NCBI RefSeq assembly: GCF_054482525.1
Contig: NZ_CM137006.1
Direction: 5' to 3' (one strand)
Length of the DNA: 64,000 nucleotides
The position numbers and the translations under genes were made by a program. This document shows positions 1,910 through 34,668 of this stretch, piece after piece. The first letter of the stretch is position 1; every line of letters begins with the position of its first letter. The notes beneath the pieces were generated by a model. The model made no database searches. It was not told where the DNA came from and saw nothing but the letters and a program-made list of their open reading frames with translations.

Positions 1910-3046
1910 GTGAAAATCCTTGTTGATGAAAATATGCCTTATGCCCGCGACTTATTTAGCCGTTTGGGTGAGGTGACCGCGGTTCCCGGGCGTCCAATCC
2001 CCGTCGCTCAACTGGCAGACGCGGATGCGCTGATGGTGCGTTCGGTCACGAAAGTGAATGAATCTTTGCTGGCAGGAAAACCCATTAAATTTGTTGGCAC
2101 TGCCACCGCGGGTACCGACCATGTCGATGAAGCGTGGTTAAAGCAGGCGGGAATTGGTTTTTCCGCGGCACCAGGCTGTAATGCGATTGCGGTGGTGGAA
2201 TATGTTTTCTCCTCACTGCTGATGCTTGCTGAACGCGATGGATTTTCACTGCACGAGCGTACTGTGGGGATCGTGGGCGTTGGTAACGTTGGGCGTCGAT
2301 TACAGGCGCGACTGGAAGCGTTAGGGATCAAAACATTGCTTTGCGATCCGCCTCGCGCCGACCGTGGGGATGAGGGTGATTTCCGCTCGCTGGATGAATT
2401 AGTTCAGCATGCGGATATTCTGACTTTCCATACGCCACTCTTCAAAGACGGGCCGTACAAAACGCTGCATCTGGCGGATGAAAAACTGATCCGTAGCCTG
2501 AAACCAGGAGCGATTCTGATTAACGCCTGCCGTGGCGCAGTCGTCGATAATACTGCCCTGTTGACCTGTCTGAACGAAGGCCAGAAGTTAAGCGTAGTGC
2601 TGGATGTCTGGGAAGGCGAACCGGAACTTAACGTGGAATTGCTGAAAAAAGTGGATATCGGCACGCCGCATATCGCAGGCTATACCCTGGAAGGTAAAGC
2701 GCGTGGCACGACGCAAGTGTTTGAAGCCTATAGCAAGTTTATTGGGCATGAACAACACGTTGCGCTGGATACGTTGCTGCCCGCGCCAGAGTTTGGCCGC
2801 ATTACGCTGCATGGTCCGCTCGATCAACCGACGCTGAAAAGGCTGGTGCATTTGGTGTATGATGTGCGCCGCGATGACGCACCGCTGCGTAAAGTCGCCG
2901 GAATACCGGGTGAGTTCGATAAGCTGCGCAAAAACTATCTTGAGCGCCGTGAATGGTCATCTCTGTATGTAATTTGTGATGACGCCAGCGCGGCATCATT
3001 GCTGTGTAAACTGGGTTTTAACGCCGTTCATCATCCGGCACGTTAA
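1910..3046 (+). CDS. pdxB: Erythronate-4-phosphate dehydrogenase (PLP biosynthesis)
   Basis: 378 aa, GTG start; translation [16 protein letters not shown]... with NAD-binding GxGxxG (GIVGVGNVG); D-2-hydroxyacid dehydrogenase family. Confidence 0.95.
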
Positions 3047-3111: not shown

Positions 3112-4125
3112 ATGTCTGAAGGCTGGAACATTGCCGTCCTGGGCGCAACTGGCGCTGTGGGCGAAGCCCTGCTTGAAACGCTGGCTGAACGTCAGTTCCC
3201 GGTTGGGGAAATTTATGCACTGGCACGTAACGAAAGCGCAGGCGAACAATTGCGCTTTGGTGGTAAGACAATCACCGTGCAGGATGCCGCTGAATTCGAC
3301 TGGACGCAGGCGCAGCTGGCGTTTTTTGTCGCAGGCAAAGAAGCTACCGCTGCCTGGGTTGAAGAAGCGACCAACTCAGGTTGCCTGGTGATCGACAGCA
3401 GCGGATTGTTTGCTCTCGAACCCGACGTACCGCTGGTGGTGCCGGAAGTAAACCCGTTTGTACTGACCGATTACCGCAACCGGAATGTCATCGCCGTACC
3501 GGACAGTCTGACCAGCCAGCTGCTGGCGGCACTGAAACCGTTAATCGATCAGGGCGGTTTGTCGCGTATCAGCGTTACCAGCCTGATTTCAGCCTCCGCC
3601 CAGGGCAAAAAAGCGGTCGATGCGTTAGCGGGGCAGAGTGCTAAATTGCTCAACGGCATTCCGATTGATGAAGAAGATTTCTTCGGGCGTCAGCTGGCGT
3701 TCAACATGCTGCCGTTACTGCCGGATAGCGAAGGTAGCGTGCGTGAAGAACGTCGTATCGTTGGCGAAGTACGCAAAATCCTGCAGGACGAAGGGCTGAT
3801 GATTTCGGCAAGCGTCGTCCAGGCACCGGTATTCTACGGTCATGCCCAGATGGTCAACTTTGAAGCACTGCGTCCGCTGGCAGCAGAAGAAGCGCGTGAT
3901 GCGTTTGCTCAGGGCGAAGATATTGTGCTCTCTGAAGAGAACGAATTCCCGACTCAGGTGGGGGATGCTTCTGGTACGCCGCATCTTTCCGTTGGCTGCG
4001 TACGTAATGACTACGGTATGCCGGAGCAAGTTCAGTTCTGGTCGGTGGCCGATAACGTTCGCTTTGGCGGCGCGCTGATGGCAGTAAAAATCGCCGAGAA
4101 ACTGGTGCAGGAGTATCTGTACTAA
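3112..4125 (+). CDS. usg: USG-1 protein, aspartate-semialdehyde dehydrogenase homologue
   Basis: 337 aa, N-terminal Rossmann motif ([10 protein letters not shown]); immediately upstream of and overlapping truA. Confidence 0.9.
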
Positions 4126-4937
4126 TGTCCGACCAGCAACAACCGCCAGTTTATAAAATTGCGCTGGGCATTGAGTACGACGGCAGTAAGTATTACGGCT
4201 GGCAACGGCAGAACGAAGTCCGCAGTGTGCAGGAGAAGCTGGAAAAGGCGCTCTCCCAGGTGGCGAACGAACCGATCACCGTCTTCTGCGCCGGGCGTAC
4301 TGACGCAGGGGTACACGGTACCGGGCAGGTTGTGCATTTCGAAACGACCGCGCAGCGCAAAGACGCTGCGTGGACGTTGGGCGTAAATGCGAATTTACCT
4401 GGTGACATCGCCGTGCGTTGGGTTAAAGCTGTACCTGATGATTTTCATGCCCGATTTAGCGCCACGGCTCGCCGTTATCGCTACATCATCTACAATCATC
4501 GGCTGCGCCCGGCGGTACTGAGTAAAGGGGTAACCCATTTTTACGAACCGCTGGACGCTGAACGGATGCATCGGGCTGCGCAATGCTTGCTGGGCGAGAA
4601 TGATTTCACCTCGTTCCGTGCGGTGCAGTGCCAGTCCCGAACCCCGTGGCGCAACGTTATGCATATTAATGTCACGCGTCACGGTCCTTATGTGGTGGTA
4701 GATATCAAAGCGAATGCCTTTGTACATCATATGGTCAGGAATATTGTCGGCAGCCTGATGGAAGTCGGTGCCCACAACCAGCCGGAGAGCTGGATAGCAG
4801 AGTTGCTGGCGGCAAAGGACAGAACGCTGGCGGCAGCAACGGCAAAAGCGGAAGGGCTGTATCTGGTCGCGGTGGATTACCCTGACCGGTATGATCTTCC
4901 AAAACCGCCAATGGGCCCGCTATTTCTGGCGGACTAA
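4125..4937 (+). CDS. truA: tRNA pseudouridine(38-40) synthase
   Basis: 270 aa; start overlaps usg stop (TAATG-type junction); recognised TruA sequence ([22 protein letters not shown] catalytic Asp motif). Confidence 0.95.
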
Positions 4938-4957
4938 CAAGAATAATGCTCGGAACA

Positions 4958-4992
4958 TTTCAGGCTGTAGCCAACGTAGTTACAGCCTGAAA
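4958..4992 (+). other. Perfect 12-bp-stem hairpin between truA and dedA, no U-tract
   Basis: TTTCAGGCTGTA - 11 nt loop - TACAGCCTGAAA read directly; followed by AGATGACG rather than a T-run. Confidence 0.6.
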
Positions 4993-5019
4993 GATGACGA
5001 GTACAAGGCATAGGCTAAT

Positions 5020-5679
5020 ATGGACCTGATTTATTTCCTCATCGATTTTATCCTGCACATTGACGTGCATCTGGCAGAACTGGTCGCGGAGTATGGCGTC
5101 TGGGTTTATGCCATTTTGTTCTTAATTTTGTTCTGTGAAACCGGTCTGGTGGTAACGCCGTTTTTACCGGGTGATTCATTGCTGTTTGTTGCCGGTGCGT
5201 TGGCATCACTGGAAACCAACGATCTCAACGTCCATATGATGGTGGTGCTGATGCTGATCGCCGCGATTGTGGGTGACGCGGTGAACTACACCATTGGACG
5301 GTTATTTGGTGACAAACTGTTCAGTAATCCGGATTCGAAAATCTTTCGTCGCAGTTATCTTGATAAGACTCATCAGTTTTATGAGAAACATGGCGGCAAA
5401 ACGATTATTCTCGCCCGTTTTGTGCCGATCGTCAGAACGTTCGCGCCGTTCGTTGCGGGAATGGGCCACATGTCGTATCGTCATTTCGCCGCTTTTAACG
5501 TCATCGGCGCGTTGCTATGGGTACTGATTTTTACCTACGCGGGTTATTTCTTCGGAACGCTCCCCTTCATTCAGAGCAACCTTAAACTGATGATTGTTGG
5601 CATTATTTTTGTTTCAATATTGCCAGGTGTTTTCGAATTTATTCGCCACAAACGCGCTGCGGCACGCGCCGCAAAATAA
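5020..5679 (+). CDS. dedA: DedA-family inner membrane protein
   Basis: 219 aa hydrophobic ORF with the DedA/SNARE-associated motif region; K-12 position between truA and accD. Confidence 0.9.
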
Positions 5680-5834
5680 AAAGTAACTCCGCGGTTCGAC
5701 CACTTTTTTATCCAAAGTTTCGGGCTGTTATGTTTTAATGTGCAACATTCATGGTCTGTTGGGGGCAAAAATGGCATTATGCGTCCCCAAAGATAAAACT
5801 GGCATCGAACCAGGTTCAGACAGAAAGGTCCCTA

Positions 5835-6749
5835 ATGAGCTGGATTGAACGAATTAAAAGCAACATTACTCCCACCCGCAAGGCGAGCATTCCTGAAGGG
5901 GTGTGGACTAAGTGTGATAGCTGCGGTCAGGTTTTATACCGCGCTGAGCTGGAACGTAATCTTGAGGTCTGTCCGAAGTGTGACCATCACATGCGTATGA
6001 CAGCGCGTAATCGCCTGCATAGCCTGTTAGATGAAGGAAGCCTTGTGGAGCTGGGTAGCGAGCTTGAGCCGAAAGATGTGCTGAAGTTTCGTGACTCCAA
6101 GAAGTATAAAGACCGTCTGGCATCTGCGCAGAAAGAAACCGGCGAAAAAGATGCGCTGGTGGTGATGAAAGGCACCCTGTATGGAATGCCAGTTGTCGCT
6201 GCGGCATTCGAGTTCGCCTTTATGGGCGGTTCCATGGGGTCTGTGGTAGGTGCACGTTTCGTGCGTGCCGTTGAGCAGGCGCTGGAAGATAACTGCCCAC
6301 TGATCTGCTTCTCCGCCTCTGGTGGCGCACGTATGCAGGAAGCACTGATGTCGCTGATGCAGATGGCGAAAACCTCTGCGGCGCTGGCAAAAATGCAGGA
6401 GCGCGGCTTGCCGTACATCTCCGTGCTGACCGACCCGACCATGGGTGGTGTTTCTGCAAGTTTCGCCATGCTGGGCGATCTCAACATCGCTGAACCGAAA
6501 GCGTTAATCGGCTTTGCCGGTCCGCGTGTTATCGAACAGACCGTTCGCGAAAAACTGCCGCCAGGATTCCAGCGCAGTGAATTCCTGATCGAGAAGGGCG
6601 CGATCGACATGATCGTCCGTCGTCCGGAAATGCGCCTGAAACTGGCGAGTATTCTGGCGAAGTTGATGAATCTGCCAGCGCCGAATCCTGAAGCGCCGCG
6701 TGAAGGCGTAGTGGTGCCACCGGTACCAGATCAGGAACCTGAGGCCTGA
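5835..6749 (+). CDS. accD: Acetyl-CoA carboxylase carboxyltransferase beta subunit
   Basis: 304 aa from ATG 5835 (MSWIERIK...); Zn-finger CxxC..CxxC (CDSCGQ...CPKCDHH); track ORF begins at an upstream in-frame start at 5751 that I did not adopt. Confidence 0.95.
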
Positions 6750-22787: not shown

Positions 22788-22816
22788 AAAAAACCGGAAA
22801 TAGTGACTATTTCCGG
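22788..22816 (-). terminator. Intrinsic terminator of pta (ackA-pta operon)
   Basis: Minus-strand hairpin CCGGAAATAG-TCA-CTATTTCCGG followed by U6 (plus-strand A6 at 22788-22793); a second 7-bp hairpin sits at 22826-22844 just after the pta stop. Confidence 0.75.
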
Positions 22817-22856
22817 TTCAGATATCCGCAGCGCAAAGCTGCGGATGATGACGAGA

Positions 22857-25001
22857 TTACTGCTGCTGTGCAGACTGAATCGCAGTCAGCGCGATGGTGT
22901 AGACGATATCGTCAACCAGTGCGCCACGGGACAGGTCGTTAACCGGCTTGCGCATACCCTGCAGCATCGGCCCGATGGAGATCAGGTCGGCAGAACGCTG
23001 TACCGCTTTGTAGGTGGTGTTACCGGTGTTCAGATCTGGGAAGATGAACACGGTAGCGCGACCTGCAACCGGAGAGTTCGGCGCTTTGGATTTCGCAACG
23101 TCAGCCATTACCGCAGCGTCGTACTGCAGCGGACCGTCGATCATCAGGTCAGGACGTTTTTCCTGCGCCAGACGAGTTGCTTCGCGAACTTTTTCTACGT
23201 CGCTACCAGCACCAGAAGTCCCGGTGGAGTATGAGAGCATAGCAACGCGCGGTTCGATACCGAAGGCCGCAGCGGAATCAGCGGACTGAATCGCGATTTC
23301 TGCCAGCTGTTCTGCGGTCGGATCCGGGTTGATCGCACAGTCACCGTAAACGTAAACCTGTTCCGGCAGCAGCATGAAGAACACGGAAGATACCAGGGAG
23401 CTGCCCGGTGCAGTTTTGATCAGCTGCAGCGGCGGACGGATGGTGTTTGCGGTGGTGTGAACAGCACCGGAAACCAGACCATCAACTTCATCCTGTTCCA
23501 GCATCAGCGTACCGAGAACCACGTTGTCTTCCAGCTGTTCGCGGGCAACGGTTTCGGTCATGCCTTTGTTCTTACGCAGTTCGACCAGACGACCAACATA
23601 GCTTTCGCGAACCACTTCTGGATCAACGATTTCAATGCCTGCACCCAGTTCTACACCCTGAGACGCTGCAACACGGTTGATCTCTGCCGGATTACCCAGC
23701 AGTACGCAAGTTGCGATACCACGTTCAGCACAGATAGCGGCTGCTTTAACGGTACGCGGTTCGTCACCTTCCGGCAGAACGATACGTTTGCCCGCTTTGC
23801 GCGCAAGTTCAGTCAGCTGATAACGGAACGCTGGCGGAGACAGACGACGGCTGCGCTCAGAAGTGGCAGTCAGAGAATCGATCCAGTCAGCGTTGATGTA
23901 GTTAGCAACGTATTCCTGAACTTTCTCGATACGCTCGTGATCGTCAACCGGAACTTCCAGGTTGAAGCTCTGCAGGCTCAGAGAAGTCTGCCAGGTGTTG
24001 GTGTTCACCATAAATACCGGCAGGCCGGTAGCGAAAGCACGTTCGCACAGTTTAGAAATGCGCGCGTCCATTTCGTAGCCGCCAGTCAGCAGCAGGGCAC
24101 CGATTTCTACGCCGTTCATGGCAGCCAGGCACGCGGCAACCAGCACGTCAGGACGGTCTGCGGAAGTCACCAGCAGAGAACCGGCACGGAAGTGCTCCAG
24201 CATGTGTGGAATGCTGCGTGCGCAGAAAGTGACGGATTTAACGCGGCGAGTATTGATGTCGCCTTCGTTGATGATGGTCGCATTCAGGTGGCGAGCCATA
24301 TCGATCGCACGAGTCGCGATCAGGTCAAAGCTCCACGGCACCGCGCCGAGAACCGGCAGTGGGCTGGATTCTTGCAGCTTCGCCGGATCAACATTGTTTA
24401 CTTTAGCTTTGGAAGAGTCGTCGAAAATCTCGGACAGATCCGGGCGAGTACGGCCCTGTTCATCAACCGGTGCATTCAGTTTGTTAACGATAACGCCGGT
24501 GATGTTGGTGTTTTTGGCACCGCCGAAGCTGTTGCGGGTCAGTTCGATACGCTCTTTCAGCTGTTCCGGGGTGTCAGTGCCCTGAGACATAACGAAGACG
24601 ATTTCCGCATTCAGCGTTTTAGCGATTTCGTAGTTCAGAGACTGGGCAAACTGGTGCTTACGTGTCGGGACCAGACCTTCAACCAGAACGACTTCAGCGT
24701 CTTTGGTGTTAGCGTGGTAGTTTGCGACGATCTCTTCCATCAGCACATCTTTCTGATTGCTGGAAAGCAGACCTTCAACGTAGCTCATTTTCAGCGGTTC
24801 AGCGGCCGTCGTGGTGGAAGAGTTCGCACGCACGATAGTCGTAGTCTGATCGGGCGCATCGCCACCGGTACGCGGCTGAGCGATAGGTTTGAAAACGCTC
24901 AGACGAACGCCTTTGCGTTCCATTGCACGGATCACGCCAAGGCTGACGCTGGTCAGACCGACGCTGGTTCCGGTAGGGATCAGCATAATAATACGGGACA
25001 C
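22857..25001 (-). CDS. pta: Phosphate acetyltransferase
   Basis: 714 aa; recognised Pta ([32 protein letters not shown]...); downstream of ackA on the same strand. Confidence 0.97.
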
Positions 25002-34039: not shown

Positions 34040-34083
34040 TCGACGGACCATAGATAATTTCTGAGACAATAGTGTAAAAACGA

Positions 34084-34121
34084 GCCGCTGGGGGTGTTTT
34101 AGACTCCAGCGGCTTTTTTTT
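34084..34121 (+). terminator. Intrinsic terminator of lrhA
   Basis: GCCGCTGG - 14 nt loop - CCAGCGGC followed by T8, 45 nt after the lrhA stop. Confidence 0.7.
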
Positions 34122-34668
34122 AGTAAAAAGCCTTCCTCGTATCGTGCAGAACGTACAAAACTGTTCATTTTTCAATCACCAGAGATTCACGTCCCGAACG
34201 CACAAATAATCGCCTGAAAAAAATCACCTGCTACAATGATGTTAAAAAATACGTAAATTTGTTGCTGCGTTTTTGTTATGGAATGACAAAAGCGTGTCAC
34301 AGATCAAGAAAATACTCTCTTTTGGGGGGAGGAATCGACACAAATTCCTGTCAAAATAGACCCGTATTTTTTCCATTGCTTCACAACGGACACGATTCAA
34401 CAACATCTAATTATCCTGGAGTCGTCAAGGATCTGGGGTGAAAGGGCATTAAATGCTAATGGTGTTGATATTATGTAAACTAATGTGAAGAAACTTTTGT
34501 TAAAGTTGACAAAAGGTTATAGAAAGGAGTAAAAGACCACATCAATTAGCTGTATAAAAGAGTTTCTACAGTGATTGTAAGGTTTTTTTTATTCCTCCCC
34601 ATGAATCGATGTGGCGTCCATCTGCCGTGAAGAGCAGTGAATCTGGCGCTACTTTTGATGAGTAAGCA
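34122..34668 (+). promoter_or_regulatory. nuo operon promoter / leader region
   Basis: 547-bp AT-rich non-coding tract upstream of nuoA; contains a perfect TTGACA at 34506-34511; the nuo control region is known to be complex, but individual sites were not mapped here. Confidence 0.4.

Follow-up and report, generated by a model that had tools for sequence, protein, structure and literature searches.

The window, meaning the whole 64-kb stretch of DNA that was analysed, is from Escherichia coli. Over positions 4700-5300, it has 100% identity to strain 118UI, and 5425 of 5426 complete genomes match there. Six genes follow one another on the + strand in the order of pdxB (1910-3046), usg (3112-4125), truA, dedA, accD, and folC. 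The window runs as the reverse complement of MG1655 coordinates, with positions 4937 and 5020 equivalent to 2434824 and 2434741 of NC_000913.3, respectively. The E. coli operon is reportedly co-transcribed (papers by Arps and Winkler). In Salmonella, transcription across the truA-dedA spacer was detected by RT-PCR (PMC6358828), and the spacer crossed there contains a small hairpin. The E. coli spacer contains a larger one, whose parts are listed in Table 1.

Table 1 Features at the truA-dedA junction, in window coordinates
Feature	Position	Strand	Basis
truA CDS (tRNA pseudouridine 38-40 synthase), stop TAA at 4935-4937	4125-4937	+	ORF list; RefSeq annotation of identical E. coli loci
truA-dedA intercistronic spacer, 82 nt (typically 24-28 nt in relatives)	4938-5019	+	sequence, comparison
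Outer (older) stem, 5' arm TGCTCG; homologous to TACCCG in Salmonella and Citrobacter NCU1	4947-4952	+	fold, comparison
Internal loops, 5' side GAACA: G-A vs G-A, single pair A4955-U4995, C-A vs G-A	4953-4957	+	fold
37-nt palindromic insertion relative to the small hairpin of Citrobacter/Salmonella; borders slide by 1 nt	4958-4994	+	comparison
Inner stem, 5' arm; 12 DNA pairs at 4958-4969, plus G-U and C-G in RNA	4958-4971	+	fold
Apical loop CAACGTA, 7 nt	4972-4978	+	fold
Inner stem, 3' arm; 4991 is A, T or G, depending on the E. coli allele	4979-4992	+	fold, allele comparison
Internal loops, 3' side GATGA	4993-4997	+	fold
Outer stem, 3' arm CGAGTA	4998-5003	+	fold, comparison
AAGGC, likely dedA Shine-Dalgarno; core AGGC invariant in aligned species, outside the hairpin	5005-5009	+	alignment
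dedA CDS (DedA family membrane protein)	5020-5679	+	ORF list, annotation

An earlier note on this DNA had described a 12-bp perfect stem with an 11-nt loop at 4958-4992, and the letters agree with it exactly. The arms at 4958-4969 and 4981-4992 are complementary at 12 of 12 positions with an 11-nt spacer between them, and the whole reads TTTCAGGCTGTA-gccaacgtagt-TACAGCCTGAAA. Its place between the two genes was also given correctly, but the distances were not; 20 nt separate the end of the truA stop at 4937 from the 12-bp hairpin, and 27 nt lie between the hairpin and the dedA ATG at 5020, rather than 21 and 28 nt.

In RNA, the inner stem is 14 bp long with a 7-nt loop (CAACGUA), as G4970-U4980 and C4971-G4979 are added to the 12 bp, and its GC content is 50%. 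Below it is an outer 6-bp stem of UGCUCG and CGAGUA, and the two stems are connected by two symmetric 2x2 internal loops with one A-U pair between them. The earlier note caught the 12-bp stem but overlooked this outer stem, and did not recognise the apparent insertion of a palindrome, specific to the lineage, into the older hairpin.

The full structure of the + strand RNA comprises 57 nt and 21 pairs with a minimum free energy (MFE) of -32.8 kcal/mol. Shuffled controls (n = 200) had MFE of -14.2 ± 3.0, which places the hairpin at z = -6.25, and none of the shuffles equaled it. The hairpin of the earlier note is confirmed. The minus strand folds more weakly (-24.4 kcal/mol, z = -3.75). Independently, an inverted-repeat finder detected 21-nt arms with 81% complementarity at the same place. 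In the window, 3 loci have perfect inverted repeats of 12 bp or more with a loop of 3-20 nt, against a mean of 0.095 in block shuffles, so the truA-dedA repeat is not a chance feature.

Other inverted repeats were observed elsewhere in the window. A perfect hairpin at 52455-52488, with 13-bp arms (TTCGACCAGTCAG / CTGACTGGTCGAA), an 8-nt loop and no T-run, is intergenic and lies just 3' of the stop of a minus-strand ORF (52530-53729). Downstream of a 714-aa ORF (22857-25001), a perfect 13-bp palindrome at 22792-22818 (AACCGGAAATAGT/ACTATTTCCGGTT) is followed by a T-run on the minus strand, and it is an ordinary intrinsic terminator. The inverted repeat at 34075-34122 (TAAAAACGAGCCGCTGG / CCAGCGGCTTTTTTTTA) has its arms 14 nt apart, is flanked on either side by A/T runs, and looks like a bidirectional intrinsic terminator.

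Searches for terminators, repeats and mobile elements

An intrinsic terminator was defined by a U-run, with at least 5 of 8 positions being U, immediately 3' of the stem. No T-run exists 3' of either stem, where the tails are GATGACGA and CAAGGCAT, and the terminator scan made no call at the hairpin. The hairpin was therefore rightly said not to be a classical intrinsic terminator. Intrinsic (Rho-independent) terminators are strong G+C-rich stem-loops 3' of a stop codon, as is the case at truA, but the truA-dedA hairpin has no U tract, its stem is much longer than typical, and the gene downstream of it is co-transcribed. We infer that the hairpin does not terminate transcription. The promoter scan found no sigma-70-like promoter on the + strand nearby.

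When 82-nt and 63-nt blastn queries were used (E <= 1 to 10), a single site per genome was found in 5425 of 5426 E. coli genomes, and the window has one full-length copy of the hairpin. The plasmid set contains five E. coli records with the full hairpin, of which three are chromosome-size (about 4.8-4.9 Mb) and two are 0.37 and 1.41 Mb; the rest of the set gave one other match, a 19-nt chance match. Phage records yielded weak chance matches only, and IMG/VR viral contigs yielded none. With one copy per genome versus hundreds for REP/BIME, the possibility of REP/BIME or any recognisable mobile element was rejected. The palindrome does not resemble the REP consensus (GCCGGATG...) by eye, either. 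The previously noted lack of likeness to REP is thus upheld by the single copy per genome and by the absence from true plasmids and phages.

An Rfam scan at E <= 10 returned noise only, with nothing better than E = 1; a miRNA model on the minus strand, for example, scored 17.9 bits against its 80.5-bit threshold. Several readings of the palindrome were judged unfitting on spacing or consensus, namely LexA, TyrR, CRP, PurR, integron attC, and REP GTAG. The LexA site is CTGT-N8-ACAG, and the TyrR site is TGTAAA-N6-TTTACA. The 7-nt loop resembles an anticodon loop, which raises the possibility of a TruA substrate mimic, but this is very unlikely with a 14-bp stem, a position 33 that is not U, and an occurrence in E. 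coli only.

Spacer comparison and origin of the palindrome

The truA-dedA spacer was compared across Enterobacteriaceae with one genome per species, and 80 TruA loci of this family were among the matches listed. About 70 of these 80 species have a spacer of 24-28 nt with no hairpin. A spacer of 26 nt with no hairpin was found in Escherichia albertii (the species representative and six more genomes), and also in K. pneumoniae and K. variicola. The spacer is 82 nt in E. coli, containing the 57-nt nested hairpin. It is 48-49 nt with a small hairpin of 20 nt in Salmonella (arizonae and enterica) and Citrobacter NCU1 and R56, 51 nt with a GC-rich 7-bp hairpin of GCCCCCG...CGGGGGC type in three K. 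aerogenes loci, and 99-149 nt with one long extended hairpin in Raoultella spp. and relatives. Hairpin-forming inserts are accordingly present at the junction in at least four lineages, which are E. coli, Salmonella with Citrobacter, K. aerogenes, and Raoultella.

Among the genomes compared, the inner stem was seen only in E. coli. Its conservation across Enterobacteriaceae had been proposed as a check, and the outcome was negative, as E. albertii and most species among the matches listed lack the inner stem. Nor is it a conserved RNA motif, being missing outside E. coli and having no Rfam match.

The extended hairpins of Raoultella planticola, R. terrigena, K. (R.) electrica and two related isolates (six loci in all) range from -33 to -64 kcal/mol, and have a conserved base and a variable apex. 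These elements and the E. coli arm have TTCAGGCTG(T) in common at a similar position. Local alignment between Raoultella and E. coli gave p of about 0.01-0.03 in two of four sequences, which is marginal support. The Raoultella-type element had no match in plasmids.

The small hairpin reads TACCCG-GAATATGA-CGGGTA in Citrobacter NCU1 and TACCCG-AAATGTTT-CGGGTA in Salmonella arizonae. Its E. coli counterpart is TGCTCG-GAACA[37 nt]TGA-CGAGTA, the outer stem of which aligns with the Salmonella/Citrobacter stem. When 4958-4994 is removed from E. coli, the loop becomes GAACATGA, matching the Citrobacter loop GAATATGA at 7 of 8 positions, and the flanks match at 22 of 27 aligned positions (hand count). 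MAFFT placed the gap differently, with the insertion 5' of the old hairpin, and this placement was rejected because its identity is 14/24 versus 22/27 for the loop insertion (hand count).

The simplest history suggested by these alignments is that a small hairpin was present in part of the Escherichia-Salmonella-Citrobacter group, and that a 37-nt palindrome then entered its loop in the E. coli lineage. The E. coli palindrome thus has the look of a recent insertion into the loop of a hairpin older than itself. Substitutions in the outer stem have not undone its pairing: a C-G pair became U-A by a double change, an A-U pair became G-U, and Citrobacter R56 retains a stem of 5 bp, in a shifted register, after two changes. 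These substitutions argue, if modestly, that pairing in this stem is of importance.

The origin would probably be a single palindrome-forming insertion event, and a palindrome-generating replication error at the pre-existing hairpin is plausible. Quasipalindrome or template-switch mutations, known from the Ripley model and the Lovett laboratory, create or perfect inverted repeats. The truA-dedA case resembles them in that a perfect palindrome sits inside a pre-existing imperfect hairpin with no target-site duplication and no second copy, but differs from them in that the arm sequence is not traceable to a neighbouring template. Our searches found no second copy, no target-site duplication or terminal direct repeats, and no local template for the arms. 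The best candidate for an arm source in the window was a 16/19 match at 58604-58622, which is inside a long ORF and was judged to be chance. An E. coli-like 'empty site' (GCTCGGAANNTGACGAGTA) had 25 matches in metagenomes, all in unrelated contexts.

Variation within E. coli

The hairpin is present in 5425 of the 5426 complete E. coli genomes. In its 63-nt region, 3895 of them are identical to the window, 1519 (about 28%) have one difference, and 11 are at about 92% identity. Three hairpin alleles were found among the E. coli genomes examined. The single difference was A4991T in all three one-difference genomes examined (ABU 83972, MS1657, and HB37), and it breaks the U4959-A4991 pair without compensation.

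A rare allele in RMDEC465 has five changes, two of which are in the inner stem and two in the internal loops, with the remaining one breaking the terminal pair of the outer stem. Both inner-stem changes are A-to-G opposite U, and G-U pairing survives them only in the + strand RNA. Such wobble-type changes lean towards a structure at the level of the + strand RNA, although they are far from a covariation test. As for the compensatory changes by which the earlier note would have judged the stem, no true one was found in the inner stem within E. coli.

Over 538 nt of truA, the window differs at only 0-4 positions from K-12, E. coli C or ECOR29. With a gene so close to invariance in the strains compared, zero differences are expected in the 57-nt hairpin, and its conservation is not informative. 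The hairpin is no better conserved than truA synonymous sites, which does not demonstrate purifying selection on it.

The downstream gene has a different record. dedA (5020-5679) is strongly diverged and mosaic; over about 580 nt it differs from ECOR29 and E. coli C at 45 positions, and from K-12 at about as many, compared with only 0-4 in truA 4400-4937. The dedA differences come in blocks that differ by strain, and are mostly at third codon positions. This pattern suggests that recombination begins right after the truA-dedA spacer.

In strain HB37 (3306-6305 of its locus), ISEcp1 with blaCTX-M-123 is inserted at the equivalent of window position ~5004/5005, immediately 3' of the outer stem. 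The element parts the hairpin from the dedA ribosome-binding site and cuts dedA off from its operon.

Possible roles of the hairpin

Published maps of RNA ends were consulted. The Adams 2021 Term-seq tables contain no truA or dedA entry and no coordinate starting with 24346-24348, nor is a 3' end given downstream of dedA; neither gene appears in their Rho-region table. In the portion of these tables that covers the region, the minus-strand rows step from 2432888 (folC) to 2447546 (prmB). This negative is weak because no 3' end is listed for the operon at all, and the operon was probably below the detection threshold of that study. The TERMITe tables have no entry for the hairpin.

truA and dedA are absent from the RNase III tables of Gordon 2017 and are not mentioned in the main text of Altuvia 2018, and the list of p19-captured dsRNA (PMC7373196) has no entries in the hairpin. 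The RNA ends that the earlier note would have expected at the hairpin were thus not found, neither as a 3' end (Adams 2021) nor as an RNase III entry (Gordon 2017), the result being weak for an operon without any listed end. Together with the lack of conservation and of compensatory changes in the inner stem, this largely corresponds to the refutation that the earlier note had set for itself.

The reading we favor, with a probability of about 0.4, is by analogy with known structures; the hairpin may be a passive mRNA stem-loop that blocks 3'-exonucleases and is weakly selected. Dar & Sorek 2018 (PMC6061677) described stable stem-loops without a U tract that shield the 3' ends of E. coli RNA from degradation by PNPase and RNase II. 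The truA-dedA stem-loop is like these in being stable, in having no uridines after it, and in lying just 3' of a coding region. On the other hand, it is operon-internal, with the next start codon only 16 nt away, and neither a 3' end nor a Rho-dependent region is listed for it in the maps consulted. REP, as in malE-malF, is an older type of intercistronic stabiliser, from which the truA-dedA hairpin differs in being single-copy.

As a barrier, the hairpin would obstruct PNPase and RNase II, 3'-to-5' exonucleases that gain entry once the transcript has been cleaved, or released by Rho, within dedA, and the truA-proximal RNA would then slightly outlive the dedA part. The insert would be tolerated because its self-folding leaves the geometry of the stop codon and the Shine-Dalgarno sequence, and with it dedA initiation, almost unchanged. 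When the hairpin was deleted in silico, the opening energy of the dedA initiation region shifted by only about 0.2-0.6 kcal/mol. An effect of the hairpin on the accessibility of the dedA ribosome-binding site was accordingly rejected as negligible by the predicted opening energy.

Selection on such a barrier would be weak at best, and several observations count against the barrier itself. No steady-state 3' end or Rho region is given in the Adams 2021 tables, where the operon has no listed ends, and none in TERMITe. About 28% of E. coli genomes have a single mismatch, which is A4991T in all three examined. The hairpin is conserved no better than truA synonymous sites, and most Enterobacteriaceae among the matches listed lack any hairpin at the junction.

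A neutral insertion is nearly as likely as an exonuclease barrier. A mutational accident, such as template-switch or fold-back synthesis at the small hairpin, would have become fixed in E. coli with no selected function, and would persist since a self-folding insert between the stop codon and the Shine-Dalgarno sequence is harmless. Neutrality fits the restriction to E. coli with most relatives being hairpin-free, the lack of excess conservation over truA synonymous sites, the common allele with an uncompensated stem mismatch, the absence of a predicted change in access to the dedA ribosome-binding site, and the absence of reported RNA ends or RNase III sites at the hairpin. It fits less well with the hairpin inserts of at least four lineages at this junction, which hint at selection or a shared cause, with the maintenance of the outer stem by compensatory changes, and with the retention in 5425/5426 genomes with only three alleles among those examined. 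The same four-lineage inserts could be taken as convergent selection for operon-internal RNA 'punctuation' that would set the truA:dedA ratio via exonuclease block or RNase III cleavage, the E. coli palindrome being a recent strengthening of it, but we regard this as unlikely.

Cleavage by RNase III has a distinctly low probability. In the modelled fold, a coaxial helix of ~21 bp would be cut on both strands, separating truA and dedA segments with different decay rates. RNase III needs about 20-22 bp of coaxial dsRNA, and the helix is within this range with its 21 bp, or about 25 stacked layers when the 2x2 loops are included. Intramolecular stems are the main in vivo substrates of RNase III according to Altuvia 2018. 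Like known stem substrates such as the rpsO-pnp and rnc leaders, the truA-dedA hairpin would offer a nearly unbroken dsRNA of about two helical turns, with small internal loops, in non-coding mRNA. Unlike them, it is missing from the searchable published targets, including the supplementary tables of Gordon 2017 and the main text of Altuvia 2018; the p19 dsRNA list does have dedA entries, but none in the hairpin. It is very improbable that the hairpin, strong in nascent RNA and directly upstream of dedA as it is, acts as a transcriptional pause or a weak factor-dependent attenuator lowering read-through into dedA. The U tract is absent, no 3' end or Rho-dependent region is listed, the downstream 50 nt have only a mild excess of C over G (12 C vs 8 G), and Salmonella co-transcribes across a spacer with a small hairpin (PMC6358828). 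We give as little credence to an element acting as DNA, whether as a palindrome bound by a protein or as what is left of a small palindromic mobile element of REP or MITE type. The perfect 12-bp dyad symmetry and the adjacent ISEcp1 insertion in one strain speak for it. Against it are the single copy in all E. coli genomes, the absence from true plasmids, phages and viral contigs, the lack of terminal direct repeats, a spacing that by our own reading misfits LexA and TyrR, and the wobble-type substitutions of RMDEC465, which suit RNA pairing rather than a DNA palindrome; a regulator site found only in E. coli and inside an operon is also unlikely.

The hairpin is real and stable, and of the genomes compared only those of E. 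coli have it; it is an ordinary intercistronic stem-loop without a U tract. Most likely, it slows mRNA decay locally or does nothing. None of the roles proposed in the earlier note (RNase III or RNase E site, stabilising stem-loop, and protein-binding palindrome) was confirmed, whereas its statements that the hairpin is neither a terminator nor REP hold. What is unusual, and only mildly so, is that the palindrome appears to be nested in an older hairpin and that hairpin inserts recur at this junction in four lineages.

If functional, the hairpin would be another operon-internal stem-loop giving neighbouring cistrons, here for a tRNA pseudouridine synthase and a DedA-family membrane protein, different mRNA lifetimes. 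Its evolutionary value is greater, as it would be a clean natural case of hairpin growth by palindromic insertion in its own loop, at a truA-dedA junction that has gained hairpins repeatedly. Neither evolutionary point alters current understanding, and the practical consequence is small.

The p19 data contain one more observation on this operon. Three sense/antisense 22-nt dsRNA species are located inside dedA at 2432180-2432332 (PMC7373196, supplementary file 7), which implies antisense transcription over dedA.
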